64,000 nucleotides of DNA from the IMG/VR virus record IMGVR_UViG_3300042516_004811, positions 1-64,000 of that record. One strand, given 5' to 3'. Under the pieces are notes generated by a model that was not told the origin of the DNA, did no database searches, and saw only the letters and a program-made list of their open reading frames with translations. This stretch comes from a virus. A program made the position numbers and the translations under genes. The stretch's first letter is position 1. Every line of letters begins with the position of its first letter. Shown piece by piece: positions 34,575 to 53,005 of the stretch.

Positions 34575-34621
34575 TACGTGGTCTTCCACCACCGTCAATT
34601 GGTTACCCGTAAGGAGACATC

Positions 34622-35587: not shown

Positions 35588-37144
35588 CTAGGTCAGTGAC
35601 CTGCCCATGTGCTTGCGGTAAGTGTCTTGGAACATGTACGCCCACACCGAGCGAGCCTGACCACCAGTGCGCAGTTTGCGCAGTTGCTCAATGGCTTCCT
35701 CAACATGGGGAACCACGATGTAGCCGTGCTTCTGTGCGTACTCAATGCACTGCATGGAAAGGATTTCAGAGAAAGAGTCTCTGTGTCCACACACTCCACC
35801 GTCTGTGACCCACACAAGCGGAGCGTTCTTGCCTTGACGGTTCTCAACGCCCCAAACTATTGCAGGGTAGTCCACGCCGTTTCCGTGTCCATAGTCAATG
35901 TATTCCACATTCTCAACCATGCGACCCTTGTCAGCGATGACCCACATGTTCGGTGCGGTGTCACTGTTCTTGTCGGAATAGATAGCCACCGTTGCGCCCT
36001 TTGCGTTATCCACGATTTCCACGATTTGTTGTGTCGTGAAAGACATGGAACCGCTTGCGTCAATAATGACCATTCCACCCGAGCCACGGATGTTCTTGTC
36101 AAACACACGCTTTGCAGGGTCGGTCATGTATCGGTGCAGTCTGCGAGGACGGCGACCCATGTTGGTCGCAATGCGCTTCTTGCCGATGTTGCCAACATGC
36201 AAGCGAGGCATTGGCTCACGACTCACACGGAGTTCCGACCACTTAGGAGCAGAGCCGTGGTATTCGGTCGGCTTCATGTCCTTGTGCGGATTTCCATTGC
36301 GGTCGCCTTCACCGTCAGGCTCGCCTTCATTGCTTGGAGACTTATCTACCGACTCATCGGCTTCCTCTCCCTTGCCCTCGCTCTTGTCAGAGCCAGCCTT
36401 GCTCTTGCCTTTGTCACCCTTGCGCTCTTTCGGCGGTGGGAACGAGGCGATTCTGTCCACCCACTCTGCGATTCGCTCAGTGTGTGAGAATCCATGCGGT
36501 GCAAGTCCACCGTCACGCTCAACGCCAGTAGAAGCGAGCGTACCTGTGCGGTGCGCTTTCTTCATTTCTCGCATTGCTCGCTTGCCAATGTCCAGCAGAG
36601 CGTCACCCCATGCTCGGTTGTGCCTACGGATTCCAGTCAGGAACTTCTTGTGACCAGCAGTGCCAGCAGTAGCGAAGCAGGTAGCAACCGCACCTGCCCA
36701 GTCATTTGCTTGCGCAAGCCGTTCACCTGCTTCCATTTCACTTCCGTCAGCGAGTTCCGTCTTGATAGGGAAGCCAACATTTTCAGCGAGGTAGTTCATG
36801 CGAAGTTCCTCAACTGCCACCATTGCAGGTGCAGAGGCAACGCCTCGGGCAACCCACTGCTCCATTTGTTCCTCGGTCGGAGACAACTTGGCATGCATAA
36901 GTTCATGCCCTCGGATAGCCCGAGCGAGTTCGGAGTCGGTCGCAGGTGCAAACATCACACGCTTGTCAATGCTCGTGCGAGGCTCACCACGCACAGGTCG
37001 GCAGTTCTCAACTGTCCAACGCTCATGGGCAACATCGTGTCGCCCGAGCAGGTTCGGTTCGGGCTTGTGCGCCCCCACCTCGGACTTATCTACCGAGGTG
37101 GGGAACGCCTTGCCCGACTTGCTTGGAGTCGGTGTGGTGGACAT
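35588..37144 (-). CDS. HExxH metallopeptidase-like / VWA-domain protein (MoxR partner)
   Basis: GHELMH, acidic linker, MIDAS IIDASGSM, VWVTDG; start MSTTP 1 nt after the ATPase stop. Confidence 0.8.
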   Translation of the reverse strand: MSTTPTPSKSGKAFPTSVDKSEVGAHKPEPNLLGRHDVAHERWTVENCRPVRGEPRTSIDKRVMFAPATDSELARAIRGHELMHAKLSPTEEQMEQWVARGVASAPAMVAVEELRMNYLAENVGFPIKTELADGSEMEAGERLAQANDWAGAVATCFATAGTAGHKKFLTGIRRHNRAWGDALLDIGKRAMREMKKAHRTGTLASTGVERDGGLAPHGFSHTERIAEWVDRIASFPPPKERKGDKGKSKAGSDKSEGKGEEADESVDKSPSNEGEPDGEGDRNGNPHKDMKPTEYHGSAPKWSELRVSREPMPRLHVGNIGKKRIATNMGRRPRRLHRYMTDPAKRVFDKNIRGSGGMVIIDASGSMSFTTQQIVEIVDNAKGATVAIYSDKNSDTAPNMWVIADKGRMVENVEYIDYGHGNGVDYPAIVWGVENRQGKNAPLVWVTDGGVCGHRDSFSEILSMQCIEYAQKHGYIVVPHVEEAIEQLRKLRTGGQARSVWAYMFQDTYRKHMGRSLT

Positions 37145-37145
37145 G

Positions 37146-37868
37146 TCAGCGAACCTTGTCCACTGCGAGAGCGTCAAGAATCTGCTTGGCACGGCGACCA
37201 AAGGTGAGTTCGCAAGCCCTCTCCATTCCGAGAGACTTCCGCAACTTGTCCAGTGCGAGGAACGCACGGAGCGAGATTCGGTCATCACCAGCGTCAGCCA
37301 TGCGCACTGCGTATCCACGCAGGTCGGGAGACAGAGCCAGCAGAGCCGAGGGGTGAGGCTCGTTGATTCGGATTCGGATAGGGAAACGGTCAGCGAGAGC
37401 CGTGGGCAGTTCACCCATGTTCTCAATGTTCGTGGTCATAACGGCAGAGAAGCCGTTGAGAGGACGCAGGATTTCGCCAGTTTCGGGATGCTCGTAGGAA
37501 GCAGACTCGGGAGAGTCAAGCATTGCGAGCAGGGTAGCGAACACATCGCCACCAGCCTTATCTACCTCATCAACGATGAGGCGACCGCCCTTTGCTCCGT
37601 TGCCTTTCCACGCTTTGAGCGCAGAGCCGTCAAGCCACTGGAAGCCACCATTGTTGGACGGCATGAAACCGCCAGTGACATCCATGTTGGTCATGTCCTC
37701 GGTGCAGACGAGGCGGTATGCGCCAGCCTCGGTGTCTCCGAAATGCAGACCTGCGTAGGTCTTGCCGATTCCAGCAGGACCGAACAGGATGATTCGGTCA
37801 ATGCCAGCGTTGAGTGCGTCCTCAACATCTTTCCAGCACTTGGGTAGTGCTTCGGTGGTGGTGTCCAT
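37146..37868 (-). CDS. MoxR/CbbQ-like AAA+ ATPase
   Basis: GPAGIGKT, LIVDEVDK, TTN, ALADRF. Confidence 0.88.
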   Translation of the reverse strand: MDTTTEALPKCWKDVEDALNAGIDRIILFGPAGIGKTYAGLHFGDTEAGAYRLVCTEDMTNMDVTGGFMPSNNGGFQWLDGSALKAWKGNGAKGGRLIVDEVDKAGGDVFATLLAMLDSPESASYEHPETGEILRPLNGFSAVMTTNIENMGELPTALADRFPIRIRINEPHPSALLALSPDLRGYAVRMADAGDDRISLRAFLALDKLRKSLGMERACELTFGRRAKQILDALAVDKVR

Positions 37869-38196
37869 TGTTTGCTCCTTTGTAAGCGGTTGGTAGGGAC
37901 AGACACACCATACCATGCATGGTTCAGACTTAGTAACTCTTGACAGCCCGACTTATCTACCTACATAGAAGCCTTGCCAGCATTGGCTCTCCGACTTATC
38001 TACCTACATCAGCGCACACCTCTTATGTGGTGCGTTGCAGGTGGCATGTTGGCGCACGGATGATTCTCCGACTTTTCTAGCCGTCCCCCCATGCCTGCGC
38101 CCACCAGCCTGCGCTGGAGCCCCGCACCGCTCGGGCTTACAACGGGGCTCTTGTGGCCGGCGAGAGATTTATTGACTTTTTGACTTATCTACCTAG

Positions 38197-38685
38197 TCAG
38201 TCGCGTTCGTCTTTACTGACGCTCCACAGCCCGCGTTTCACCTTAACGAAAATCGGACTTTCTGAAACGTACTTCAGTGTTGTCTGGTACGAGAACCCAG
38301 ACTGCTCGACCAGTTGCTCGGTTGTGAACTGTTCCCCTCGATGGCCTTGAGCCCACTTGTCAAAGTTTTCCCATTTATTTGCGCGCTTCTGTGGAGCTTC
38401 TTCCTTCTCACGCTTTGAGCTGTACTTGAGGCTGGAGTAACCGAGGTTGTCCAGCACATACTGTGCTGACTCCTCTGATACCGAGTAACTGCGTAATGCA
38501 GAGATAGGCGAGCCACTGCCACCATCTCGCTGCCAAATCTGAACAACGTACATCCCTCGCAAAATCTCGTTTATGCGAGTCACTTCTTCCTTTGGAACTG
38601 CGAACAAGTTCTTGTATTTCTTCTCGGCCTCACCCCACAGTTGTTCGTGGTGGATGTCAATGACCTCACTTGTTATCTGATTCAT
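38197..38685 (-). CDS. hypothetical protein with a C-terminal HTH-like region
   Basis: GAAGGA RBS; FTTEQLVEQSGFSYQTTLK..KVKRGLW. Confidence 0.55.
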   Translation of the reverse strand: MNQITSEVIDIHHEQLWGEAEKKYKNLFAVPKEEVTRINEILRGMYVVQIWQRDGGSGSPISALRSYSVSEESAQYVLDNLGYSSLKYSSKREKEEAPQKRANKWENFDKWAQGHRGEQFTTEQLVEQSGFSYQTTLKYVSESPIFVKVKRGLWSVSKDERD

Positions 38686-38921
38686 GTTTCCTTCCTCGGA
38701 CTTATCTACGTGTCCACCCAGCATGGTAATGGAAAAATCAACTATTTGACAAATGCTAAGTTCCGCCAGGCAAGTCTTCCCCCACCGTCATTGCCTACCT
38801 TCCCTGGTTTTCCGCCGCAGCCGGCCGCAGGTATGTAAAAAAAACGAAAAATTGAACACGGTTTAAGCCCTAGGGCTCAATCCAGCCGGGGCTCCACACC
38901 GCATTGAGCGAGTTGGGGCAT

Positions 38922-38960
38922 AAAAAAGCGAGAGCCACCATCCCCGTCAGATGGTGGCTC
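38922..38960 (-). terminator. intrinsic terminator
   Basis: GAGCCACCATC/GATGGTGGCTC stem followed by a T6 run on the minus strand. Confidence 0.7.
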
Positions 38961-39009
38961 CCTACTAGGTAGATAAGAAGAAAGGAAATAAACACTTATC
39001 TACCAGTCC

Positions 39010-39228
39010 TTAGAGGAAGGTGAACTTGTCACCCGCCTCTGATACGAGTCCAAGGCTACTGCCATTATCCCATTTCACAAACACAGTGCCAATGTCATCT
39101 ATGTGGTCAATGGTTCCCTCGTCACCAGCACGGAGCGTGGTGTATGGGTCGGCAGTGAAATCCAGTCTTATCCTTCGCCCGATGTAGTTGTCACGCATTT
39201 CCTTGATGACGGTCATTATGTGCTTCAC
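39010..39228 (-). CDS. DUF4314-family protein
   Basis: G.RIRL....DPY..L..G.EGT...IDD.GT..V.WDNGSSLGL. Confidence 0.8.
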   Translation of the reverse strand: MKHIMTVIKEMRDNYIGRRIRLDFTADPYTTLRAGDEGTIDHIDDIGTVFVKWDNGSSLGLVSEAGDKFTFL

Positions 39229-39374
39229 TTGTCTGCTCCTTCCAGTTGTTCCTCTTGCAGTACGAGAATCCGCATGTCCAACAACATGTCCACCATTTCA
39301 CTAGTAGAGATAATGTCCCTGCCTGAGCAGGACGCTATTGCGTTGTCCAACATCTTGATGAGTTCGGCGTTCAC

Positions 39375-40061
39375 TTATTTACCTTCCTTTCTTGCTCGGG
39401 CAAGAAGGTCTTGGTACTCGGAAGTACGCAGAGCCATTTCCATGTATTGACAGATAGCGATGAGTGTGTCGGGGATTCGCCCAAACTCGCTGTCCTCTTT
39501 TAGTTCGCAGACCTCTGCCTTTGGTTCGGAGAACTGTGGGATTCCTTGGTCGTCGTACTTGTAGGGAGCAACGCTGTGCCACAACTTGTCTGCACCCCAG
39601 TTGATAGCGGTGATGACATGAGCCTCGCACACATCGGTAAATGGATTCTCCTGAAACTCCTTCTGCAAGTCGCCTCGGTTCATGTTCTTCATGTTCGCAC
39701 GACCTTCTTCGGGGTCGGTGAATGAGCGTGTGTAGCCCTCAACAGCGAGGATGATGAAGTCAAACTTGGCAATGGGCATTGCCTTGACCACATCCTCAAT
39801 GCAGTCCACTACATCCTCTTTGTGAATCAGAGGAATCATTGCAAGGTGGTAGGGCTTGCTCAGACCAACTTCCTGCTGGAACTCAACACAGGTGTCGTGT
39901 TCGGGGTTGGTTTCATTGCTCTCAACAGCGATGAGCATAATCGCAGGATTATCGGACATTGGCTCCGACTTGCACATCTCTATCTTGGCAAACTGTGAGC
40001 GAATAATCACATCCTCTACGAGAATCTGACCGTCCCTCTCAATGGCTTCTTTGGTGTTCAC
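39375..40061 (-). CDS. hypothetical protein
   Basis: Repeat promoter plus GAAAGGA RBS. Confidence 0.7.
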   Translation of the reverse strand: MNTKEAIERDGQILVEDVIIRSQFAKIEMCKSEPMSDNPAIMLIAVESNETNPEHDTCVEFQQEVGLSKPYHLAMIPLIHKEDVVDCIEDVVKAMPIAKFDFIILAVEGYTRSFTDPEEGRANMKNMNRGDLQKEFQENPFTDVCEAHVITAINWGADKLWHSVAPYKYDDQGIPQFSEPKAEVCELKEDSEFGRIPDTLIAICQYMEMALRTSEYQDLLARARKEGK

Positions 40062-40167
40062 AGTGTTTCCTTTCTGTGGGTTGGTGGTAATGGAAGCATA
40101 CCATGTATGGTTCAGACTTATCTACTGACTAATGGGGCTATCTCTCCCCAACGGTCAGCAATGTACT

Positions 40168-40374
40168 TCATCCAATAATGGAGTCAGTGGGGATTCCGAG
40201 TGCCTTGCCAAGAGCAACTAGCGTCTCAACGCTTGGCATGAAGTGACCGTTCTCAATGCGATTTACGGTCTTTCTGTCAATGCCAGCCCGAGAAGCAAGT
40301 TCTATCTGTGACCAGCCTGCGTTCTCACGCAGTTCCTTCACTCGCTTACTAATGGTTTCTTGTGTTTTTGTCAT
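40168..40374 (-). CDS. XRE-family HTH regulator
   Basis: LRENAGWSQIELASRAGIDRKTVNRIENG...PS. Confidence 0.9.
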   Translation of the reverse strand: MTKTQETISKRVKELRENAGWSQIELASRAGIDRKTVNRIENGHFMPSVETLVALGKALGIPTDSIIG

Positions 40375-40407
40375 GGGGGTTTCTGTTTCTGTGGAGTTAT
40401 CTACTGA

Positions 40408-41121
40408 TTAGACGCTTGGAATGAAGGACTCCACATACCTTCCTTCCTTGCGTTGTCTGTCTGCCTTCCGCTTCCAAACGAGATACTCGTTCATTACGGT
40501 TTCAGCATCTGTGTACATCATGTCTGTGTTGTTGTTGCGCCAGTCGTTATGTGCTTCGTAATACTCATCCCACAGCATGGTTTCGTCTTTTTCTGTTGCT
40601 TCGTCATACAACTTCTGCAAATCTTCTGGCATGCGGTCAGTGTCAAGGCTTCCTTCCTCAACTGTTTCTCCGTTAGCGATTACTTCCCAACCGCAGAACT
40701 GATGACCTTCTTCATCATAAGAAAGCGAGAACACGAGATTCGGAAACTGCTCAGACACAGACTGAATCAACTTCGTTGCAGGTGACCATGCGCTCTCAAA
40801 TCGCACATGAAGTGGATACGAGTTTTCATCGTCTACTTCCACATTGCATGCACCCCACTTTGTTCCCCACTTCTCTATTGCGTCTGCGTATCCGTCAAAG
40901 CCGTCTGACTCCGTGCTTGCGAACACCGAGAATGTGGTGGTCACATCGTTTCCATCTTTGTCCTTGTGTGTGCTGACTTTCTCAATGCTTCCCCTCGGGT
41001 CAAGAGGAACGAGTCTGTTCAGTTCATAGCACTGCTTCGGTTCACGCATTGCGCTGATGAGTTTCCGCAGTTCACGCTTATTGCCAGCGACCAACATGTT
41101 TGTGTAGCACCAGTTAGGCAT
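40408..41121 (-). CDS. DUF1281/YubB ferredoxin-like domain protein
   Basis: MPNWC, WGTKW, FESAWSP, YDEEG. Confidence 0.75.
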   Translation of the reverse strand: MPNWCYTNMLVAGNKRELRKLISAMREPKQCYELNRLVPLDPRGSIEKVSTHKDKDGNDVTTTFSVFASTESDGFDGYADAIEKWGTKWGACNVEVDDENSYPLHVRFESAWSPATKLIQSVSEQFPNLVFSLSYDEEGHQFCGWEVIANGETVEEGSLDTDRMPEDLQKLYDEATEKDETMLWDEYYEAHNDWRNNNTDMMYTDAETVMNEYLVWKRKADRQRKEGRYVESFIPSV

Positions 41122-41409
41122 GTCCAGTTCCTTTCGGGTTTAGTTCCATGCGATGTACCATACCAGCACAGGGACAAACTTATCTACCTGACTCATCCAC
41201 CACCGTCATTTGGTTTTTGGAGACTTATCTACCTGTCCCCCCGTGCTCCTCGTCTTTCGGTTGGAGAAAGTTCGTAGTTAGATTTATCTAAATGTCCACC
41301 CACACGAGCGACCTTCGGTGTCACGGCGTGAGCCCCGGCGCTGGTCCGTGCATAGCGGGGCTCCAGCTGGAGTTATCAGATTTCAGGGAAAGTTGGTGGA
41401 CTTATCTAC

Positions 41410-41745
41410 TTAGATGGACTCAACAGGAGAAGCGTAGATAAGTTCCGAGTAGGCAATGCGCCAGCCCTCGTCACTACCTTGCCAAGCGATACGGATAATG
41501 TCACGCACTCCACTTAGGTATCGGAACACTGCATCATCGTCAATGCCAAAATCGTCTAGTTCATCACCCACAGGTGGAGCAGAGAAAGAGACATAGGCGT
41601 AAATGTGGTGGCTAGCCTTTTCTTCCCATTTCAGTGCAACATCAGCACCAACCAGTATGCGCCCCTGCGTTGCCGTGTGATACCAGTGTGTGAACATCAC
41701 TGCGATAGTCCACGCACAACGACGCAAAAAGTTATCTACCCACAT
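41410..41745 (-). CDS. hypothetical protein
   Basis: GGGGGA RBS before MWVDN. Confidence 0.5.
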   Translation of the reverse strand: MWVDNFLRRCAWTIAVMFTHWYHTATQGRILVGADVALKWEEKASHHIYAYVSFSAPPVGDELDDFGIDDDAVFRYLSGVRDIIRIAWQGSDEGWRIAYSELIYASPVESI

Positions 41746-41962
41746 TGAGTCCCCCTTCCACGGTACGGAGCGTTGCGTCTGCAACGGCGAGAGCAAGTGT
41801 ACGGGCATCAACGCCATGCTCATCAGAAATCCATGGAAATAGATGACCGTCTCGTATGTCATCCCACATGTTGCACATTGCTTCTACTGGCGTGACACCG
41901 AGAGTGTTGTATTCAGTCCATAGGAAGTCTGTGAGTTCGCCCACGCTCATCGGCTCACTCAT
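41732..41962 (-). CDS. hypothetical protein
   Basis: ATGA coupling. Confidence 0.55.
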   Translation of the reverse strand: MSEPMSVGELTDFLWTEYNTLGVTPVEAMCNMWDDIRDGHLFPWISDEHGVDARTLALAVADATLRTVEGGLNVGR

Positions 41963-42171
41963 TGCGCTACTTCTTCTACCTTGATAGTTGAGATACTGGT
42001 GAGGTTCTTGCGGAAGTCAAATGAGAACTTCATTGCCCAGTAATCCAGCATGACGCTCTGCGCTTCTTCGCAAGCCTCTTTGAGTTTCTTGGGAGAGATA
42101 GAGTCGTCAAAAATGATGTCCTCTGAAATCTCTGTACCACGGATTACGCCCGTAACTCTGTACTTTGCCAC
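41959..42171 (-). CDS. hypothetical protein
   Basis: GTG start directly after GGAAGGTAGATAA. Confidence 0.55.
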   Translation of the reverse strand: MAKYRVTGVIRGTEISEDIIFDDSISPKKLKEACEEAQSVMLDYWAMKFSFDFRKNLTSISTIKVEEVAQ

Positions 42172-42208
42172 TTATCTACCTTCCTTCCGAATCCGTGCCA
42201 GTCTACTT

Positions 42209-42790
42209 CTAGACCAGCAACTCCTTGACCCAACCAAATCGCTCATCCACTCGCATCGCAGCCAAGCCAGCGTCAATGGCTCGCTGTGCGTTAGTGTCAA
42301 TGGAAGCAACGACAGGCTGACGGTTGAGAACACTCTGAACATCCTTGGCAGTGAGAGCCAAGCCATCTCCAATAAAAGCGACCAGCAGTTCAGTGCTAGG
42401 TGCGAATCGGTTGGCGGTGTTGTGCAGGCTCATGTACTCGTTGCGCACGACACACACACGCTGAACCGTGTAAGCGGTCGGGTACTCCTGTGAGCAGTTG
42501 CGCCCGTTGTCAATGACCACGAAATCGTAGTCGGAAACATTGACAGATGAAATCTTTTCACTGTCACCGACACGCACCATGTCCAAGTTGGGGAACACGC
42601 CCTTGGCAACCTCTCCACGGGAACCAATGGGTAATGCAATATTGAGCCACGGATAAGTGTCGGGGGAGTAGCCCGAATCAACGAGCAGAGTAGAACGCCC
42701 CTTATTCGCAAGAATCAAAGCCAATGAGCAGGCGGTTGTGGTCACTCCCACTCCGCCCTTGTATGAATGAATGTCGTAAATCTGTGTCAT
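42209..42790 (-). CDS. ParA/MinD-like P-loop protein with a degenerate Walker A
   Basis: SYKGGVGVTTT, TLLVD, YDFVVID. Confidence 0.75.
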   Translation of the reverse strand: MTQIYDIHSYKGGVGVTTTACSLALILANKGRSTLLVDSGYSPDTYPWLNIALPIGSRGEVAKGVFPNLDMVRVGDSEKISSVNVSDYDFVVIDNGRNCSQEYPTAYTVQRVCVVRNEYMSLHNTANRFAPSTELLVAFIGDGLALTAKDVQSVLNRQPVVASIDTNAQRAIDAGLAAMRVDERFGWVKELLV

Positions 42791-42849
42791 GTTTTCCTCT
42801 CGGTAGGTGTTGCTAGTAACTGTACCACTAACGGTTCAGACTTATCTAC

Positions 42850-43236
42850 CTATTCCTCGTCCTCGTCGTCCGACCAAAGTTCGTTTTCGTCCTCTGAATC
42901 GTCCTCAAACTCATCCTCGTCATCGCTGATGAACTGAACGGTCACGGATGAAACTCGTCCGTCCTCTGCGTATTCCACGAATACGGGATACAGGCCGTCT
43001 CCCCAGCCTGATGAGACACACACGCCAGCACCAGTGCCACCATGCTTGTAGAGCAACTGCCCACCACCCTGCTCACTGAGGGAAGCACCGCAGGCTCCGT
43101 TATACGAGTACGGGTGGGTCTCTCCCTCTGACGGCGCAAACTCCTCATCGCTGAGGAAGTCGCTGACATAGCACGGGTCGGTCAGGAGAATCTGTCCTGA
43201 ATCCACTCCGCAGTATCCGATGAGTTTCCGTTCCAT
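42850..43236 (-). CDS. DUF4241-like protein
   Basis: GVDSGQ..L.DP, SSGWGDG.YPV. Confidence 0.65.
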   Translation of the reverse strand: MERKLIGYCGVDSGQILLTDPCYVSDFLSDEEFAPSEGETHPYSYNGACGASLSEQGGGQLLYKHGGTGAGVCVSSGWGDGLYPVFVEYAEDGRVSSVTVQFISDDEDEFEDDSEDENELWSDDEDEE

Positions 43237-43585
43237 TTCTTATCTACCTTTCTTGGTGGGTGATGTGAACGACTGTACCACACACGGTTCAGACTTACAA
43301 AGCGAGTCATCCACCACCGTCATTGTGTTAGGGGGGTGTGTCAGAGTTATTTACCAGCCCCACCAAAAAAGCGAGAAATCTGAAACAGGCATGACTTATC
43401 TACTTGTCCCCCCACGCGCACGGGTTCACCGCCACCCGCAGGGAGCCCCGGCGGTCCACTGCATGTAGCGGGGCTCCAGCCGAACAGGTGGGTATGTGGC
43501 TCGGACTTATCTACCTACCTAGGCAGGGGGGCAGAGTGAGGGTAGATAAGTATGGGGGGCGCACTTATCTACCCTCTACCGCCAG

Positions 43586-43906
43586 TCAGTCGTCCAACCC
43601 TCTCAACTTGCCGCCTCGCACCTCGTAGTCGTGGAGAGCGTCAGCAATGTTCCTACGGTATTCGCCATTCCCGAAAGACCAGCCCTCGGGACGGTCGTAG
43701 GCGGTGAACACAGCGAACGGGTGGAGTGGGTTGTGGGGCAGGAGACACAGCACCACCCACACGGCGTAGGTGTCTATGTCAGAGGGGCGCAACAGCCAGC
43801 ATGCGAGGACGGTGTAGGCGTAGTCACTTGATGTAGGCGTGACCACTTCGCCCACAGAGAGCAGGCGCATGGGATAGGTGTCGGTCGGGGACTTATCTAC
43901 TGACAT
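43586..43906 (-). CDS. hypothetical protein
   Basis: GAAGGGA RBS; second gene of its module. Confidence 0.6.
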   Translation of the reverse strand: MSVDKSPTDTYPMRLLSVGEVVTPTSSDYAYTVLACWLLRPSDIDTYAVWVVLCLLPHNPLHPFAVFTAYDRPEGWSFGNGEYRRNIADALHDYEVRGGKLRGLDD

Positions 43907-43909
43907 GGC

Positions 43910-44362
43910 TTACTTCCCTTCCAGCCAAGCGTCAAACTCGTCATCGGTCAGAGATACGACCTTCGGACTGGGGTCATCCATGATTCGGGCGACTTCCGCC
44001 TCTACGGTGGTGCGCACTCGCTCATCGTTCAGAATGAGTCCAGCGATGAGATGAAAACGCTCGCCCATGAACTCGGCAGGCACGTCGTAATCGTTTCCGT
44101 CGTACTCGCCACGCTCATTCAGATAGCCAACGACCACACAGTCACCCACGAGAGGACGACCGAACAGAACGCTCGCCACGAGATTCGGAGCAAGACCGAT
44201 GAGCAGTCCCTCGTCGTGGACGTAGCCAGCGAGATTCTCGCCATTGGTCACGCAGTCAATCCAACCGCCAACCAGTGAGTTGATGGTCTGATAGGCGTTC
44301 TCCTCGGGGAGAGTGACGGGTGCGATTCCCCCGTCTGCCTTGATTAGTAGTGCTTGTGTCAT
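43910..44362 (-). CDS. DUF3846-family protein
   Basis: LVGGWID.V...YVHDEGLL.GL.PN..AS...LVGD.V. Confidence 0.75.
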   Translation of the reverse strand: MTQALLIKADGGIAPVTLPEENAYQTINSLVGGWIDCVTNGENLAGYVHDEGLLIGLAPNLVASVLFGRPLVGDCVVVGYLNERGEYDGNDYDVPAEFMGERFHLIAGLILNDERVRTTVEAEVARIMDDPSPKVVSLTDDEFDAWLEGK

Positions 44363-44427
44363 GTGGATTCCTTTCTCCGTTGGTGACACCTGAACTGTAC
44401 CACCACAGGTTCAGACTTACAAACCGA

Positions 44428-44558
44428 ACTTATCTACTTGCTCCCCCATCCCAGCCTCGCCCTCTCGCGCGGTGGGAGCCCCGGGGTTCTGCCAACTGTG
44501 GCGGGGCTCCAGCTCGGCACGGCTCGCTGGCTGTGAGTGGGGTGGCAGGTAAGAAAGT
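44428..44558. repeat. ~132-bp symmetric intergenic element
   Basis: ACTTATCTAC..GAGCCCCG-N18-CGGGGCTC..GTAAGAAAGT. Confidence 0.9.
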
Positions 44559-44721
44559 CGCAGATTTCTGTGGTGGTTGCTTCTTATCTACATTCTCTCT
44601 ACCGCCCTCGCTCACGCTCGGTTGCTCTCGGAGTAATAGGTAGATAAGTCGGGACAAAGAGAAGCCCCACCACTCTCCCCTAAGTAGGTAGATAAGTGGT
44701 GGGGTTCCCTTTGGGGGTCTG

Positions 44722-45135
44722 TCAGGCAGTCGCCTTCTTGGTGGACTTGACTGCCTTCGGCTTGTCTGCGCCCTTCGTGGGTCGCACCAGCACTCGCACA
44801 GAGTGAGAGATTTCCACGCAGGTACGAATGACCTTTGCGGAGATTTCGCCTCGCTCAACTGAGGAGTCCCACGCCTTCGTGTCCACCGTGGGCTTCGTGA
44901 CCTTGCGGAACACGGCAGGAGAGACAGCCTCACGCAGTTTCTCCAAGTTCCACGAACGGCGTTCGGCGGGGGACAGTTTGACCGTCACCTCGTCAAGAGC
45001 CACTTCGTCAAGCCCGTGGCTTGCGAGCGTGTCCAGCAGGATTTGGCGAGCCTCGTCGTGGGCTTCCTCTGCCCTCTCTTTGAGGGTGAGAGCGTCAAGG
45101 TAGCCCTTGACTGCGTTGGTTACTTGCTTGTCCAT
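44722..45135 (-). CDS. hypothetical protein
   Basis: Repeat promoter plus GAAAGGGA RBS. Confidence 0.7.
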   Translation of the reverse strand: MDKQVTNAVKGYLDALTLKERAEEAHDEARQILLDTLASHGLDEVALDEVTVKLSPAERRSWNLEKLREAVSPAVFRKVTKPTVDTKAWDSSVERGEISAKVIRTCVEISHSVRVLVRPTKGADKPKAVKSTKKATA

Positions 45136-45296
45136 TTCAGTATCCCTTTCGTGTTGAGTGGTGGACACCACCACTCTACACCACATAGTTCAGACTTCAC
45201 AACTTCCCTTGACACTTATCTACCTAGTCAGGGACAGCCCACACGCCAGCGCACTTATCTACCTTCATTCGCCTCGCACATTTGCCAACTAAGATG

Positions 45297-45427
45297 ACTT
45301 ATCTATGCGCCCCCCCATTCCAGCCAGCCCTCTCCGCACGGCTGGAGCCCCGTTGTTTCGGCAGTTTGGTGCGGGGCTCCTGGCTCGGCTTGCCCGCAAC
45401 CTCAGTACGGGGGGCAGGTAGAAAAGT
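45297..45427. repeat. ~132-bp symmetric intergenic element
   Basis: Core at 45345-45379 (N19). Confidence 0.85.
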
Positions 45428-45700
45428 GGAGATTTCATCACTCAACCAACTACGGCTATCTCGTCTAGCCATTCGCCTCGCAGAGATAGAAGCAGACCTC
45501 GGGTTCGTGGAAGCGCAGAACGCAGAGAACAGAGCAGTCCTCCGCAGAGCCACATTCCACTCGGTTTCAGAGTTATCTACCTCCCCTGAACCTCCCACTA
45601 TCTAGGTAGATAAGTGTCCCCAGACAAGCGAAAGGGGGAGTGAGCAACCAACTGCCCACTCCCCCTTGCTTGGGGCGTTTCCCTTATAGAGAAAGGGAGG

Positions 45701-46123
45701 CTAGAGGTACTCCGCCACGCTCTTGAGTGTGGTTGCCGACACATACTCTTGGTCGGTCATTTCCAGCACTCGGATTGCTTGTTCCAAAGCCTCTCGGTCA
45801 GCCTTCCAGTTCCACTCCTTGTAGAGTTCGGGGGACTCGGGCTCGCTTCCGATAGTGGACTTCGGGAACTCAAAGGTCGCCTGAATGGTCACGACCTTTT
45901 CCTTGTTGTTGGGTCGCCAGCGAGAAGTGGTTGCCTCCGTGACCTTGCCCTTGCCAGCCTTGACAAGTTTCAGCAGGTTGGTGTTGTATGCCTCCACAGC
46001 CTTGTCATACTCGGCTTCCAACTTGTCGTTGTTGGCGAACCGCTTGGCTCGCTCGTCAAGTGCCTTCTTGAGTGCCTCCAAGAGAACACTCACCTTGACT
46101 TTCACCTGAAGTGATTTGGACAT
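45701..46123 (-). CDS. hypothetical protein
   Basis: Repeat promoter, RBS, downstream hairpin at 45628-45667. Confidence 0.7.
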   Translation of the reverse strand: MSKSLQVKVKVSVLLEALKKALDERAKRFANNDKLEAEYDKAVEAYNTNLLKLVKAGKGKVTEATTSRWRPNNKEKVVTIQATFEFPKSTIGSEPESPELYKEWNWKADREALEQAIRVLEMTDQEYVSATTLKSVAEYL

Positions 46124-46210
46124 TTCCTTTTCTCCTTACCAACGGCATTTCTCGGTTGTGAACCGCTGGCACAGGCACAGTACCACATACGGGACAGACT
46201 TCATAACTCA

Positions 46211-46342
46211 ACTTATCTACCTGCCTCCCCATTCCCAGCGCACAGCCATTCGCACGGCAGAGCCCCGTTGCTTCTGCGATTACGGCGGGGCTCCGGCACT
46301 CGGCGGTTCTAACTGCGAGCGTGGGTGGGCAAGTAAGAAAGT
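46211..46342. repeat. ~132-bp symmetric intergenic element
   Basis: Core at 46260-46293; 39-bp linkers on both sides. Confidence 0.9.
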
Positions 46343-46468
46343 CGGGAAATAGAAACGCATTTAGTTGGCTCGGAGAGTTATCTACCTTTCTCATTTAGGT
46401 AGATAAGTCGGTAGATAAGTGAAAGCCCCTACCCACTAGGGGCAGGGGCTTCACTCGGGGGGTCTCGG

Positions 46469-46909
46469 TTAGAAGGCTCGCACCAGCAGGTTCTGAACTG
46501 CGTCAGCGAGTGAACCCGTTGCCTGTCCTTCATCCACGACTGGTTCAGTCGGCTCGTCTTGGAAGCGGAGAACGCTCACCACGCTCTCACGGCTGGCGAA
46601 CACGGAGAGACGGACACGCCTCTTGGCAGGGTGTTCGCTCGGTGCGCCTTCGGCTTCGCCCTCGCTGTTGAGTGGCGCCGCCCAGCCTGTCGTGACAAGT
46701 GCTATGTAGTCGGACACCTGCGCCACCTTTACGGCAGTATCGCTGTCCAGCAGGTCGTACACATCCCGTTCGGCGGTAGCGAGCGTCAGGCTCACCTCTC
46801 CGTTCAGGTCAATGTTCACGGAGTAGAGGTGTGCGCTACCCATTTCGTAGCCCACCTCTGCGTCAATGATTTCTTCCGCTCTGGAAGCACTTTCGGTGAA
46901 TGTTGCCAT
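46469..46909 (-). CDS. hypothetical protein
   Basis: Repeat promoter plus GAAAGGGA RBS. Confidence 0.7.
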   Translation of the reverse strand: MATFTESASRAEEIIDAEVGYEMGSAHLYSVNIDLNGEVSLTLATAERDVYDLLDSDTAVKVAQVSDYIALVTTGWAAPLNSEGEAEGAPSEHPAKRRVRLSVFASRESVVSVLRFQDEPTEPVVDEGQATGSLADAVQNLLVRAF

Positions 46910-47308
46910 TTGGTTGTCCCTTTCTCGGTTGGTTGGTTGGACACCACGACAGTACCACATACGGTTCAGACTTAGCAAGGGTGGGACTTATCTACCTAGT
47001 CAGCGAGTGCGCTGGTGAGGTTCTTCCACCACCGTGAATGTCTTGGGGAGAGGTTGTCACGCCCTGCCTCACCGCACGGCTTGACGAACTCGGCAACTTG
47101 ATGCGACTTATCTACTTGCCCACCCCTTCCTGCGCCTCACCGCCCCAGCACGGCGGAGCCCCGGCGGTGATGAGCGTCAGCGGGGCTCCTGCCCACCATC
47201 GGCGCACGGAGAGAAATGTCATCGGCTCGGCATTGGGTCGGACTTATCTACCCCCTCACAGAAAGGGGGAGAGAGAGGGTAGATAAGTGCCGAACGCCTA
47301 CGCTACCG

Positions 47309-47599
47309 CTAGGGGTTGCGTGGCGAGTCTGTGGGGAGATGAATGGTCTGCCAAGTGTCTATGCCTGCCCCGTACATCGCTACCAGCGTGTCAATGACGG
47401 CGAGAACATCGCCAGTACAATGACGGCGAGCAATACCGTCTAGCGTGTCGCCACTCACTACCTCAACGCTACGCACGGCGCAGGAAAAGGTGGGAGGCTC
47501 TACCGCCTTGCGTACCGCCCACACTCCTGCCCACAGCAGGGCGAACACTATGGGCGTGAACACTACGAAACGGCGCACGGTGTACTTATCTACCCTCAC
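47309..47599 (-). CDS. membrane-anchored LysM protein
   Basis: TM helix then VVSGDTLDGIARRH; GTGA coupling. Confidence 0.7.
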   Translation of the reverse strand: MRVDKYTVRRFVVFTPIVFALLWAGVWAVRKAVEPPTFSCAVRSVEVVSGDTLDGIARRHCTGDVLAVIDTLVAMYGAGIDTWQTIHLPTDSPRNP

Positions 47600-48063
47600 G
47601 CCGTTGCCTCCTGAATAGCGATGCTCTCCCACGGGTGAGCCTTCTCAAAAATGGCAACATCGTTACCGTTCTCGTCTTTCGTAATGCGCCGAACTTCCAA
47701 CCTGTCATCGTGAATGATGTACAGCCACTCGCACCACGCAAGTTCCTTGTCCTCATTGGTGAACCACGCCGAAGGGTCGTAAAGGCTCGTGTCCGTGTGT
47801 GCGTAGCCGTAGCCTGTCACGCAAGCGTGTGCTTCGTAAAGGCTCGGCTCTCCTGCCTCGCTCGGCTTGGCAAGTGGGTCAATGATAGACCACGAAGCGT
47901 GTTCATAGCAGAGCGTGTGTGCCACATTCACTCTGCCGTCTCGTGCTACAAGTTCGCCAAGAACTCCCACAATGCGTTGTGGGTAGTTGTCCCAATGGAC
48001 ATACCTGCCACGCCACCCGTTTCCGCCGTGTGTTGCGTGTGCCACTATTCCTCGTGTTGCCAT
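47596..48063 (-). CDS. conserved phage hypothetical (Y.HWD.YP motif)
   Basis: MATRG...YVHWDNYP...EWLYI. Confidence 0.7.
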   Translation of the reverse strand: MATRGIVAHATHGGNGWRGRYVHWDNYPQRIVGVLGELVARDGRVNVAHTLCYEHASWSIIDPLAKPSEAGEPSLYEAHACVTGYGYAHTDTSLYDPSAWFTNEDKELAWCEWLYIIHDDRLEVRRITKDENGNDVAIFEKAHPWESIAIQEATA

Positions 48064-48135
48064 TGCTTTCCCTTTCTCGTCAGTTGCTATGGACACCACC
48101 ACAGTACCACGCAAGGTTCAGACTTACAAACCCAA

Positions 48136-48267
48136 ACTTATCTACCTGTCACCCCACGCACGAGCCTCTGCCCTCGCACGGCGAGAGCCCCGATGTTTAG
48201 CCGTCTGTGGCGGGGCTCCAGCTCCTCGCTCACACTCACGCCGGCACGGGTGGACGCGTAGATAAGT
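48136..48267. repeat. ~132-bp symmetric intergenic element (canonical copy)
   Basis: ACTTATCTAC-N39-GAGCCCCG-N18-CGGGGCTC-N39-GTAGATAAGT. Confidence 0.95.
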
Positions 48268-48382
48268 CGGCAAAGTTCAGTCAAGTTCACGACGCTTGCA
48301 GGTTGGTTGTGTTCATACAGACGCATAGACCTATCTACCCTGCCGTTACTAGACAAGGTAGATAAGTCGTGCGGTTAGTTAG

Positions 48383-48781
48383 TTATTCGTCGTCGGACTC
48401 AAACACGGGGACAACAAGGCTTGCACTGCCAGTTGGAGCATCGTGGTGCGAGAGAGAGAACTCAACTCGGTCAGAGAACACTCGGTAGCGGAGAATCCAT
48501 TCTGAATCCACGGTGATTGCACGAACGAACTCGGAGACGGTGCGAGCCTGAAACACTCCACCAACTTCACGATTCCAAAGACGGATTCCCGAAACTCGGA
48601 AAGTGTCAGATTGTGAAAGAAAGTTGTTCAGACACTCGCCAAAGAAGTACAACTCATCTTCGTAGCAAGTACCGAAACACACGGGAGAATCCGTGAAGGT
48701 ATCGGTTTCTTGGTCGTGCACGGTGCAGGTGCAAGTGTTGGTCAGTTCGCCATAGGCGACTGGCATCTCGGTGGTGGTCAT
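48383..48781 (-). CDS. hypothetical protein
   Basis: Repeat promoter, RBS, SHHDAPTG motif. Confidence 0.7.
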   Translation of the reverse strand: MTTTEMPVAYGELTNTCTCTVHDQETDTFTDSPVCFGTCYEDELYFFGECLNNFLSQSDTFRVSGIRLWNREVGGVFQARTVSEFVRAITVDSEWILRYRVFSDRVEFSLSHHDAPTGSASLVVPVFESDDE

Positions 48782-48847
48782 TTCATTCCCTTTCTCGGTG
48801 GTGGACAAGCACAGCGTACCACGCAAGGGTCAGACTTATCTACCTTG

Positions 48848-49102
48848 TTAGTAGGGGTCGTAGTTGTCCCATTCATCTCGCCTACGCTCCAAGTAGCGTT
48901 CTTGGCAGTTGTCATACTCACCACAGGCGTAGAAGTCATCTTGTGACTTGTCAGGATTCTTCGTCAGCCATTCAGCTAAGTCTTCTTCCAGTCCGTCTTC
49001 GTCGTATTCTTCCAGCCAGCGTTCTTCTTGTGATGACAAGCACCCACGCTCACTACCTCTCAACAACCAAGTGTCGTAATCAAGTTGGAACTTCGGTCGC
49101 AC
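48848..49102 (-). CDS. hypothetical acidic protein
   Basis: Repeat promoter, GGAGAGGGA RBS. Confidence 0.6.
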   Translation of the reverse strand: MRPKFQLDYDTWLLRGSERGCLSSQEERWLEEYDEDGLEEDLAEWLTKNPDKSQDDFYACGEYDNCQERYLERRRDEWDNYDPY

Positions 49103-49154
49103 AATAATCCCTCTCCGTTAGTAGCACAACACAACGCTAACACAGAGTGTTCAG

Positions 49155-49286
49155 ACTTATCTACTCGCCCACCCACACACAGCACTCGCACCTCGCGTAG
49201 CGGGAGCCCCGGCGTGGCTCGCTCTGTGGCGGGGCTCCTGCCCAAGGCGGTGGCAGGTGTGTGAACGGGGAGACAGGTAAATAAGT
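49155..49286. repeat. ~132-bp symmetric intergenic element
   Basis: Core at 49204-49237; 39-bp linkers. Confidence 0.92.
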
Positions 49287-49591
49287 CGTCATCCCACCAC
49301 AAACTTTCTCGGATTTATTTTGACACTTACCCACGCAACGAACCTTCTAATAGATGTGAAACGCTACTACTTCTCACATTGTGGTTCTCTCCACCCCATT
49401 AGCCGTGACTTGGTGTTTGATGATGACGGTCAGCCCAAGTCGTACTATCCGCTAGTTGCCTGTCCCGTATGCCGAAAGATTTGCTGGCTCACACACGCAT
49501 ACGAGGCTGGCAATGATGATGAGTAGATAAGTACGGGCAGGGGCTTACCTACCTACATAGAACACGCCACATAGGTAGATAAGTCAGGCGA

Positions 49592-49789
49592 TTACTCGCA
49601 CTCGCACTCGCCCCATTCCTCGCCACAGTCGTCACAGAGTTCGTCAGGCTCACGCTCGTAAGGCTCGGAGTCGTAGTCAGGCTCGTCAGCGTAGTAGTCG
49701 GCGTACCTATCCTCTTGCGCCTTGATAATGGACGCTTCCTCGTTCCAATGCGAGTAGTCCCTAATGCTGGAATGACGCTCGTTAGCCAT
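49592..49789 (-). CDS. hypothetical acidic protein
   Basis: RBS overlaps the GTAGATAA box. Confidence 0.6.
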   Translation of the reverse strand: MANERHSSIRDYSHWNEEASIIKAQEDRYADYYADEPDYDSEPYEREPDELCDDCGEEWGECECE

Positions 49790-49806
49790 TGTTATCTACC
49801 TACCTT

Positions 49807-50283
49807 TCAGACCTTCTTGGCGCACACAGGACCAATGCCACGCTGGACGCTCTTGCTATCGGTTAGTTCCGCACCGCACACACAGCAAATGCCGTACAGC
49901 GCACCGACTTCTTCCGCTTCTTGGATAGTCAGTCGGTCATTGGCAGACAGACGCTTGATAGCACCGCCTTCATAAACCAAACGCTCGCTCTTGGTAGTTG
50001 CTTCTGGAACGAAACGCAATGCGTAGAGTGCCGTGCCTGCTTGGTTCCAACGCACACGGTAGATGTTTGCGCCGTTGCGGTACATACCAACCTCGGTAAC
50101 AGGGTTGATGTCACCTCGTGCGTTCTCACGCTCACGCTGAATGTTGCGAAGCACGGCTTCTATCTGCTTGGTGGTCAGACTGCCCTTAGTGCGCCATTGG
50201 GTGAACAGGGACGCAAGGAATGAGTTGCGCTCGTGGTTCTCCTCTAAGTAGTCAATGGCTCGGTCAAAGTCATTAGTGGACAT
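49807..50283 (-). CDS. DUF6011 Zn-finger protein
   Basis: CCVCGAELTD..S..RGIGPVC. Confidence 0.75.
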   Translation of the reverse strand: MSTNDFDRAIDYLEENHERNSFLASLFTQWRTKGSLTTKQIEAVLRNIQRERENARGDINPVTEVGMYRNGANIYRVRWNQAGTALYALRFVPEATTKSERLVYEGGAIKRLSANDRLTIQEAEEVGALYGICCVCGAELTDSKSVQRGIGPVCAKKV

Positions 50284-50411
50284 AGGTTCCCTTTCTCTTG
50301 GTGGACACTCACAGAGTATCACTAGTGGTACAGACTTATCTACCTAGTCACAGGCTCGGACTTATCTACCTAGTCAGTCACAGTCACCCCCTCGCCCCCG
50401 TCAAATCTCCG

Positions 50412-50544
50412 ACTTTTCTACGCGTCCCCCCACACCCAGCACCTCCCTGCCCCGCAGGGCGGAGCCCCGCACAGTTCGGGCACGGGCCGGGGCTCCAGCT
50501 CGCTGGTGCTGGCTCGGCGTGGATGGGGTGGCAGGTAAATAAGT
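50412..50544. repeat. ~132-bp symmetric intergenic element
   Basis: Core at 50462-50495. Confidence 0.88.
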
Positions 50545-50623
50545 TTGAGAAAGTTCCAAGCAGATGTCCGATACGGGGACTTAGCGAACCTCAAAGTAAA
50601 TGAGAGAGAGGAACAGACAAGAG

Positions 50624-50863
50624 ATGGACGATTACGACAGATACGACCAAGAGTTGGCTACTTGTGCCGTGCTGTATGACGAGATAAACGAGAACTACAT
50701 CTGTGGATACTGCCTAGACGACTTCTCGTTCTCGCAACTCCACGCCACCTACGGTGGGAACATCCTGCCGATACCCACATTCCGTTCACGCAAGACACGC
50801 AAGCACCTGTGTCACGAGATGTGCGGTATGTGTGGTCTACCAGCGTCACGAGCGTTCTCGTAG
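50624..50863 (+). CDS. small Cys-rich protein
   Basis: CGYC...C..CGMC; GAGGA RBS. Confidence 0.5.
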   Translation: MDDYDRYDQELATCAVLYDEINENYICGYCLDDFSFSQLHATYGGNILPIPTFRSRKTRKHLCHEMCGMCGLPASRAFS

Positions 50864-50926
50864 GGGGACAGGGCTTATCTACCCTCCCAGCCCGACGCTA
50901 AGAGGGTAGATAAGTGTCCAGCCTTG

Positions 50927-51442
50927 TCAGCAGATAGAGAAACCGCCAGAGTTCTCCAAGAACTCCACGAACGCACGGACATTCTCCGTGCTGAACGGAT
51001 AGCCAGACTCCCACGACTCTCGTGTGCCTATCCCGTCACAAGCGTTACACCAGCCGTGTGTGCGACCAGTCAAAATCTGAACTTCTACGGACAACTCTTT
51101 GTCGTGTTGCCCCATCTCACGACCAATGTCATCAGTACGGATACCCGTGCCGTCACAGAGGTCGCACTTCTCACGGGGAAGGCTCGCCCTCCACTCGTTG
51201 TATTGACGCTCGTTCTCGGCGGTAGCACCCGTCTCCAACTCGTGGCGCAACTGCTTGGCGAGTTCCAGCGCACCAGACTCATCCAGCCCGTCACCGTCGT
51301 TGTAGTGACCAGACACGCCCTCGCAGAGTTCGGGAGCAACCGTCACGCAGTAGTCCCACAGGGGTCGCCACCACCACACATTGTTGCGGAAGTATTCGCC
51401 CGTCTCGTTGGTCGGCTTCTTGCCGTACACATCCATTCCCAT
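50927..51442 (-). CDS. hypothetical protein with a DnaJ-type CxxCxGxG Zn finger
   Basis: MGMD...YFRNN.W.WRPLW; CDLCDGTG, CNACDGIG. Confidence 0.7.
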   Translation of the reverse strand: MGMDVYGKKPTNETGEYFRNNVWWWRPLWDYCVTVAPELCEGVSGHYNDGDGLDESGALELAKQLRHELETGATAENERQYNEWRASLPREKCDLCDGTGIRTDDIGREMGQHDKELSVEVQILTGRTHGWCNACDGIGTRESWESGYPFSTENVRAFVEFLENSGGFSIC

Positions 51443-51506
51443 TACTTTGCCCCTTTCACTTGGCTCGGTCTTGTGAGCGTACCACACACGGCACAGACTT
51501 ATCTAC

Positions 51507-51677
51507 CTATGCTGATACGGACTCGCTGATGTTGTAGTCACACTCATCCCAAGTCAGGGAGAGGTTGGCTGTCTTGGCAAGGCTGTCAATGTAGGCATTG
51601 ACTATGCGCTCGGCGTGTTCCTCGCTGTCAGCCTCAAACTCATTCACTTCCAGAATGATGTTGGCAGAGAACTTCAT
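51507..51677 (-). CDS. small hypothetical protein (not in the ORF track)
   Basis: MKFSANIILEVNEFEADSEEHA..., AAAGGAG RBS, repeat promoter. Confidence 0.65.
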   Translation of the reverse strand: MKFSANIILEVNEFEADSEEHAERIVNAYIDSLAKTANLSLTWDECDYNISESVSA

Positions 51678-51731
51678 TGGTCTAACTCCTTTGTAGTTGG
51701 TGTGTACGAAACATTACCAGTAAAGGTACAG

Positions 51732-51859
51732 ACTTATCTACTCGCCCCCCGCACCACACGCCTAGCCACCGCAAGGCGGAGCCCCGCTGGTTGCCCGCTG
51801 TAGCCGGGGCTCTTGGCCCCTCGCCCGACTTATCTACCTGTCCTTGTGGGTAGATAAGT
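51732..51859. repeat. symmetric intergenic element (128 bp)
   Basis: Core at 51779-51812. Confidence 0.85.
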
Positions 51860-51877
51860 GGGCGGGTGCGCCTTGGG

Positions 51878-52162
51878 TCAGGCGGTGATTTCCTGCCAGC
51901 CGACCGACTCGCAACGGAACCGCTTGCCGTCGACCTCAACCTCGTCACCGACCGACAGGGCCGTGTGGGTGCGGTCCTCGGGCAGGACTGGCTCCAGCAG
52001 GTTCCAGAACTCACCTGTGTAGGTGTTGGTGTCGTGGAACACGAACTCGCAAACCGTGCGTTCGTTCACATCTGCGATGCTGGTCCACTTCACGGTGGTC
52101 TGGGTCGGCGTTCCGAAGGCCTTCCAAATCACCGTGATGGTGCGTGTGTCTGTGTCGAGCAT
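51878..52162 (-). CDS. hypothetical protein
   Basis: LSVGD.V.VDG....C...GW motif, repeat promoter. Confidence 0.7.
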   Translation of the reverse strand: MLDTDTRTITVIWKAFGTPTQTTVKWTSIADVNERTVCEFVFHDTNTYTGEFWNLLEPVLPEDRTHTALSVGDEVEVDGKRFRCESVGWQEITA

Positions 52163-52222
52163 TGCTCCCCTTTCTGGCGAGCCCTTCTCGCCTTCCCCTG
52201 AACTGTACCACGCACGGTTCAG

Positions 52223-52365
52223 ACTTATTTACCTGCCTACCCGTTCCCTGGGTTCCCCTGGGGCTGGAGCCCCGTTGGTTCGTGCGATTGGTGCGGGGCT
52301 CCGCCCCCGGCGGGCGTGGGGTGGCGCTGGCTAGCTTGCTGGCACGGGATGGCAAGTAGATAAGT
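52223..52365. repeat. symmetric element carrying divergent promoters (143 bp)
   Basis: Core at 52267-52301; both outer boxes overlap repeat promoters. Confidence 0.88.
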
Positions 52366-52415
52366 TTGAACCTTGAGTGGTACATTGATGTCAAGCCAAG
52401 AGAAAGGGAAACGAA

Positions 52416-52679
52416 ATGGCAACACTGCAAGAAGCTCCGTACAAGCCAGAGGGTTGTACTTGCCCCCCCGATGTAAATATTTGGGGTAAAGATATTTGTG
52501 CGGTTTGTCGTGATTATCGTGATGCTTGTGACGAAGCAGAAGCTCTCATCACTTATTGCAAGGTTTGTGACGGCGCTCACGATGGTGGCGAATTTGGCGA
52601 ACTTTGCCCAGCGAATGGTCGCCATTGGTTTGAGCCTTCAGACCCACGAGACCTTTACGATGCGGAGGATAGGTTCTGA
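52416..52679 (+). CDS. small Cys-rich protein
   Basis: Repeat promoter plus GAAAGGGA RBS. Confidence 0.65.
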   Translation: MATLQEAPYKPEGCTCPPDVNIWGKDICAVCRDYRDACDEAEALITYCKVCDGAHDGGEFGELCPANGRHWFEPSDPRDLYDAEDRF

Positions 52680-52882
52680 TGCGAGCAACACACAACACCC
52701 CAATCCCACCCGAAGAGCCCGAGTTTCCGATTCCAGACGATTGCGCTTGCGAGGACGGCGTGAACTGGTGCACCGCTTGCCAGCGAGTGCTAGCGGAGCT
52801 GCTGGCACGGCAAGACGAGGAGGAGCGCTCATTTCGCGAACACGACCACGAGGCTTAGCCACGGCAGGTAAATAAGTCCCCC

Positions 52883-53005
52883 GCTTATCTACCTGTCTGT
52901 CTGTGGCGCGCGCCCGGGGCGGAGCCCCGTTGGCTAGCGCATCCCGCGCGGGGCTCTCCCCCTGGGCCAAGGCTGGCTCGTGCGTGGGGAAGCAAGTAGA
53001 TAAGT
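52883..53005. repeat. symmetric intergenic element (123 bp)
   Basis: Core at 52922-52956. Confidence 0.85.

Follow-up and report, generated by a model that had tools for sequence, protein, structure and literature searches.

What is the repeated intergenic element that divides part of an uncultured freshwater phage genome into small gene cassettes, and what does it do there? The window analysed here is a stretch of 64,000 nucleotides at the start of a complete phage record of 151 kb (IMGVR_UViG_3300042516_004811), and it carries thirteen copies of this element between positions 38071 and 53005. An earlier note, made from the sequence alone, had described the copies as symmetric four-box structures of ~132 bp that might serve as recombination sites for cassette shuffling, as folded single-stranded DNA, or as phased nucleoprotein and regulatory hubs. 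Our analysis suggests that the element is probably a double-stranded, multi-protein control module placed upstream of early promoters.

The phage comes from lake water and encodes WhiB-like proteins; whiB serves as an actinophage marker (PMC6802176). Its capsid protein is nearest to that of Gordonia phage GMA6 and its kin (48-50%), so that the phage is not of the T4 type, and a binned contig related to it is held in an Actinomycetota assembly. Near-identical DNA is present in lake and freshwater metagenomes from 16 studies. With the neighbouring AAA gene as query, 80 related loci were collected, and eight related genomes were retrieved whole or nearly whole; the early block is broken in two of these (G002 and G006), and their counts are therefore lower bounds. 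Actinobacteria of fresh water have abundant large phages, all uncultured, whose gene control is undescribed, the top literature matches for the present motifs having held nothing relevant.

All thirteen intergenic pairs of cores, GAGCCCCG-N-CGGGGCTC, were confirmed at 38117-52956, with spacers of 18 bp in nine pairs, 19 bp in three and 17 bp in one. No such pair arose in 300 order-2 simulations of the region, and a scan of the full genome, as had been proposed, showed that pairs are absent from the rest of its 151 kb. The element lengths given before (131, 131, 132, 132, 132, 133, 128, 143 and 123 bp) are correct, but the symmetric four-box form, with outer sites 38-40 bp away on both sides, holds in only six of the thirteen elements (4, 5, 6, 8, 9 and 10 in Table 1; the right box has 3 mismatches in two of them), and element 8 alone matches the written consensus exactly. 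In four of the other seven (core pairs at 38117, 41330, 43443 and 47156) the right-hand box is reversed, and the remaining three differ in their gaps or in the right flank. A further 11 of the 37 cores, scattered over 30.7-64.2 kb within and beyond the range of the elements, have no partner. Nor is the outer 10-mer, GTAGATAAGT, specific to the element, since it is also found free, with 67 exact copies in the genome.

The constant unit is instead one arm, in which an outer site of about 22 bp lies ~39 bp from a core. The outer site consists of the free box followed by a run of C, and in relatives its first half alone resembles their free box. The C-rich left and G-rich right linkers described earlier are present as a bias, but this is largely because the conserved C-run belongs to the outer site. 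In the window phage 19 of 23 arms measure 36-40 bp. Every element lies 60-205 bp upstream of a promoter of one class, and an outer-site arm faces that promoter in 13 of 13 cases, even though only six elements are symmetric; solo arms have the same polarity. Across the divergence centre at 52.3 kb the promoter-facing arm switches from left to right. The symmetry is that of two copies of one half-site rather than of a selected hairpin, and the symmetric 132-bp geometry is a trait of one clade, not of the whole family.

Four motif classes occur in the early block: the promoter, the free box, the core and a further motif, TGACGGTGGTGGA. The 22 promoters of the class, found by pattern match, consist of AAGTCTGWMC followed by TG and a TAnnnT hexamer; one lies downstream of each element, and over most of the block they point outward from the divergence centre. 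A scan for consensus sigma70 -35/-10 promoters stayed at chance level. Fourteen of the 22 have a free box overlapping their -35 position. Its exact copies are all confined to 27.4-61.7 kb of the 151-kb genome, with 94 copies of the 8-mer at 23-66 kb, and they are found at promoters, stops and starts, in coding sequence and in short inverted pairs. Fifteen stop codons are supplied or abutted by a free box, and only 3 boxes are classed at starts. Boxes that overlap genes are in sense orientation in 31 of 33 cases, although the sense form has stops in two of three frames, and intergenic boxes occur in both orientations. The periodicity of the short inverted pairs, which are not independent of one another, was weak, and a dif-like layout of two boxes 6 bp apart was not seen. 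TGACGGTGGTGGA precedes class promoters that have no nearby core, 32-39 bp or somewhat farther upstream of the -10; it is strictly co-oriented in every relative counted (30575-43322 in the window; loci L152-L177). Read along transcription, a cassette boundary comprises a stop, a predicted terminator hairpin, a short inverted box pair, in some cases a mirror arm, the core pair, ~39 bp, the outer site and the promoter.

The core CGGGGCT is invariant across the family, with 330 copies inside the early block (16-58 per genome, about one or two per kb) and 2 outside it, against 38.5 expected under an order-3 model of nine genomes. Paired cores are spaced by 16-20 bp in the clade of the window phage and often by 25-30 bp in G007, and in G008 most cores are single and often lie at hairpin tips. 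The box consensus varies by lineage, and the phages that bear the box all fall in a single clade (17 of 17 leaves, support 0.98). In phages outside it, the promoter's own -35/spacer region is the motif that is repeated and lineage-specific, and it differs between phages of 84-88% nucleotide identity: among L173, L177 and L178, and between L199 and L202, it has changed at 3 or more positions in all copies. This is a concerted change of repeated sites. The pair of cores occurs only 4 and 3 times, at least in part on phage-like contigs, in two bacterial assemblies that hold a related contig, and a host regulon was rejected.

Spacing is conserved along with the core. Linker length had been expected to hold in relatives, and it does so in part: arms peak at 36-40 bp (36-39 bp across the clade), but a second group measures 45-50 bp, and orthologous arms are 39, 39, 49 and 50 bp in a 75%-identical relative versus 39, 38, 36 and 38 bp in the window phage. 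In G007 the core lies 9-11, 19-21 or 41-42 bp from the promoter motif, with a 10.5-bp period (R=0.92, p=8e-6), and G008 weakly agrees (R=0.79, n=6). In the window phage, phasing is found only between core and outer site. The arm-length peaks and the phasing in G007 together support the earlier suggestion of a phased nucleoprotein or regulatory hub.

One may thus propose a model with two readers. A conserved protein would bind the invariant core, and a second, fast-evolving phage protein would bind the box and the outer site, overlapping or abutting the -35 region. The fixed 39-bp arm would keep both proteins on one face of the helix, leading to joint action on the host RNA polymerase. Through the polar free boxes the second protein would most likely shut down the early block in the manner of stoperators, with the core reader acting as either an activator or a co-repressor. 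Two winged-helix proteins are candidates for these roles, and further candidate genes lie at 24239-24679, 28650-29154, 34200-34574 and 40168-40374. The recognition helix of the 38197-38685 protein is nearly invariant across the family, making it a candidate reader of the invariant motif, and the fast-evolving 23743-24225 protein, whose clear orthologues are limited to the box-bearing clade, is a candidate reader of the lineage-specific box. Neither predicted fold gave a match at E<=0.001, and scans for site patterns that would mark a reader pointed to no convincing gene. The HA-HTH, XRE, two RHH, TrmB-like and WhiB proteins have recognition parts that are near-constant across different boxes, which counts against them as box readers. 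Repressors of Cluster A phages with identical helix-turn-helix (HTH) domains can read different sites (PMC6550527), and an invariant helix therefore does not exclude the 38197-38685 protein.

Several observations weigh against this model. No candidate's DNA-binding helix co-varies with the box. The distances from core to -10 in the window phage (60-65, 77-80, 144, 166-168 and 202-205 bp) do not fall on a single helical phase, and the 10.5-bp signal is absent in nine other lineages pooled (R=0.24), possibly since the motif anchors differ between them. That the core is avoided beyond the early block would agree equally with a role at the DNA level. The phage genomes gave no integrase match, so that a lysogenic role for a repressor would be hypothetical. 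A LexA-type SOS box is conserved at the same place in the HA-HTH promoter in seven genomes, and in G007 four boxes of this type stand at early promoters or close to them; this suggests a damage-responsive, and possibly a carrier, state that does without an integrase. A ParA-like gene lies in a mobile cassette in 3 of the nine genomes.

Folding of the symmetric copies can give long, imperfect hairpins, and this, with the cores at hairpin tips in G008, raised the possibility that the element works as a single strand, either a DNA hairpin substrate or a structured RNA. Arm-swap tests reject the long hairpin. Complementarity is no higher between the two arms of one element than between arms taken from different ones (gapped score 16.5 versus 17.2, permutation p=0.93), the arms do not co-vary, native elements fold more weakly than arm-swapped chimeras (residual +3.1 kcal/mol, p=0.9996), and in three relatives there was likewise no significant excess. 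A compensatory change in the core was never seen, nearly a third of the cores lack a partner with which to pair, and an Rfam scan gave a tRNA-Thr as its single match and none for the element, making a folded strand the least probable of the explanations weighed here. The two-fold symmetry of inner and outer sites also recalls a res-, cer- or attC-like site for a dedicated or host recombinase, and the cassettes are indeed shuffled: gene order differs among relatives, two cassettes have changed both place and orientation between G001 and G003, taking their promoters along, and 14-82% of shared adjacencies are broken in the cassette region versus 0-14% elsewhere, with gene order and element positions largely kept in the closest clade. 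A test of whether breakpoints fall inside the elements had been proposed. Close relatives differ by 16 mapped indels or replacements, of which one, an element-to-element deletion, takes in an entire element and two fall in a promoter, but 13 lie elsewhere (four just after TGACGGTGGTGGA, nine at gene junctions or in a replaced stretch), with no common crossover point. Of the element-to-element junctions sought in metagenomes, one was found, joining element 11 to element 12 (51792-52338, side 57, run X8), but it may come from a related phage; of the joints in lake contigs, most are short-sided and probably artefacts of the repeats. Tyrosine, serine and Y1 recombinases gave no match (PF00589, PF00239, PF07508, PF01797; other HUH families were not searched), PF00589 being absent from 5 complete genomes with a positive control of 14/14. 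Elements moreover hold orthologous positions in phages at 55-60% protein identity, and symmetry is absent in 7 of 13 copies and in most relatives. A site-specific recombination site is accordingly highly improbable. Four gene indels begin a few bases after TGACGGTGGTGGA, which may serve better than the element as a joint for shuffling. The ParA-like gene at 42209-42790 differs in cassette and orientation among G000, G001 and G008, and there is an indel of it between L199 and L202.

Shuffling is better seen as a by-product, because the repeats of promoter and element give short homologies, on which a Rad52-type annealing protein and an exonuclease would delete, insert and move cassettes. A Rad52/22-family gene is present in 5 of 5 complete genomes and adjoins a PD-(D/E)XK nuclease in the window phage; Rad52-type proteins recombine short, diverged sequences (PMC3945230). 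Such a route would resemble that of the PeSLs, the promoter/stem-loop cassettes of T4-type phages (Arbiol et al. 2010, PMC2839356), and one could go further and hold that the elements are ordinary PeSLs, cassettes of promoter and terminator homogenised by homologous recombination and read by no dedicated protein. The three crossovers inside a promoter or element, the inverted cassettes that kept their own promoters and the Rad52-type gene fit this, but conservation is blocky, invariant cores and boxes alternating with free spacers of fixed length, boxes are kept even in coding sequence and the core is avoided elsewhere; we find this explanation very unlikely. The avoidance of the core, its density and its lineage-variable orientation and pairing, with solo cores in coding sequence at 32870 and in the orthologues of that site, favour another reading, in which the core marks a 40-kb domain for a process at the DNA level (DNA entry, replication, packaging, or the protection or condensation of the DNA that is injected first) and lies upstream of promoters only because there is free space there. 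The helical phasing to promoter motifs in G007, and an arm polarity that tracks the promoter even at the divergence point, argue against it, and we consider it unlikely, if the most serious of these alternatives. Promoter control could also be too narrow a view. A 7-mer purged elsewhere, together with an operator to which it is helix-phased and whose 30-90 sites change jointly from one close relative to another, may belong to a two-reader system that organises or gates the whole 40-kb early block (entry, silencing, superinfection exclusion) rather than single promoters, a minor but real possibility.

As an upstream control module, the element lends itself to testing, since it sets one invariant site at a fixed distance from one that is specific to the lineage, and the candidate readers are few. 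The concerted change of the box between phages at 85-88% nucleotide identity amounts to a natural experiment in the co-evolution of operator and reader, and the layout unites PeSL-like shuffling and stoperator-like control in one region.

Table 1. Elements and associated features in the window (positions are those of the 64,000-nucleotide stretch).
Feature	Position	Strand	Remarks
Element 1	38071-38150		outer site at 38071, core pair 38117-38150; one-armed; 205 bp upstream of the AAA/vWA operon promoter
Element 2	41282-41363		one-armed; right-hand box reversed
Element 3	43394-43476		one-armed
Element 4	44428-44558		symmetric, 131 bp; right box with 3 mismatches; promoter -10 at 44394-44399
Element 5	45297-45427		symmetric, 131 bp
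Element 6	46211-46342		symmetric, 132 bp; right box with 3 mismatches
Element 7	47106-47188		one-armed; spacer 17 bp
Element 8	48136-48267		sole exact four-box copy, 132 bp
Element 9	49155-49286		symmetric, 132 bp; left box is also the promoter -35 region
Element 10	50412-50544		symmetric, 133 bp
Element 11	51732-51812		one-armed; followed by short inverted box pair 51828-51859
Element 12	52223-52365		between two divergent promoters at the early-block centre; gaps 34 and 54
Element 13	52883-53005		serves a plus-strand promoter; the 39-bp arm is the right one
Solo arm (one core and outer site)	58662-58713	+	directly upstream of a promoter; a second at 61729-61791
Early class promoters (22)	37907-62523		AAGTCTGWMC, TG, TAnnnT -10; predicted by pattern match
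Free box GTAGATAAGT	27437-61738		67 exact copies
Second family-wide motif TGACGGTGGTGGA	30575-43322	-	seven co-oriented copies
Two-domain protein, C-terminal winged helix, 162 aa	38197-38685	-	candidate reader of an invariant motif; no fold match at E<=0.001
MarR/PadR-like winged-helix protein	23743-24225	-	candidate box reader; best E 0.01
LexA-type SOS box (34171-34184) and HA-domain/sigma4-like HTH gene	34171-34574	+	box in the promoter of the gene

Some further features of the block and the genomes were observed. In element 8 three spacer bases are changed in all four lake runs, its length being constant. The replication module at 29320-30560 encodes only the C-terminal half of an O-like initiator, together with a helicase loader, and the AT-rich non-coding stretch upstream of it may be an origin. 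At the far edge of the early block, low-complexity DNA rich in TG and GCGT extends over ~600 bp and includes three short tandem repeats (63560-64000 and L001:1-170); it is similar in G001 and G002 and is possibly a genome end or packaging region. The gene for a lysine/alanine-rich, histone H1-like protein (53801-54193) has a TTGACG promoter of its own and is preceded by a solo core and a box. Four copies of a parS-like palindrome, GTTTCACGTGAAAC, lie near early promoters in G008 (L295-L302), whereas the other eight genomes have none. Beyond the early block of the nine genomes, AGCCCAG (38 versus 143), CAACCAG and words containing GGCGCC are strongly depleted and are probably host restriction sites; -10-like hexamers are likewise depleted there.

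Integron attC, res and cer sites have inner and outer inverted sites, span about 130 bp and lie between gene cassettes. The element differs from attC sites in that no IntI-type PF00589 protein (5 complete genomes) and no co-varying hairpin were found, and in that the cassettes carry their own promoters (22 of the class) whereas integron cassettes are mostly promoterless; from res and cer sites it differs by the lack of a match to a cognate serine or tyrosine recombinase in the phage genome, although a host enzyme might act instead, and of a fixed exchange position among the 16 indels. PeSLs are closer, as here too a repeated predicted terminator and early promoter stand between small accessory genes, and cassettes are gained or lost by crossover in repeats (3 of 16 indels) with no dedicated recombinase. 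Unlike the PeSLs, the present module occurs in a phage that is not T4-type, shows no consensus sigma70 promoters above chance, and conserves short spaced sites rather than a promoter and hairpin; it has three extra motif classes, a conserved arm length and motifs that are avoided elsewhere. The SAS/ESAS repeats of Cluster K mycobacteriophages, of unknown function (Pope et al. 2011, PMC3203893), likewise combine inverted repeats around a free spacer with an asymmetric repeat, upstream of non-structural genes. SAS lie at translation starts, whereas the present module lies upstream of the promoter and only 3 boxes are at starts; its inverted half-site is 7-8 bp and family-invariant, with a spacer of 16-19 or 24-27 bp. 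The free box itself resembles the stoperators of Cluster A mycobacteriophages (PMC6550527, PMC9283540), being a short, asymmetric, multi-copy site aligned with transcription (31 of 33 gene-overlapping copies in sense), placed at promoters and gene junctions, with a lineage-specific consensus and an actinobacterial host. It differs from them in number (67-94 copies versus 20-30), in its restriction to the early block, in its many intergenic inverted pairs, in its coupling at a fixed distance to a second, invariant site, and in the lack of an integrase match. The parts of the module thus resemble PeSLs, stoperators and ESAS, and their combination, like the motifs themselves, was not found in the literature searched.

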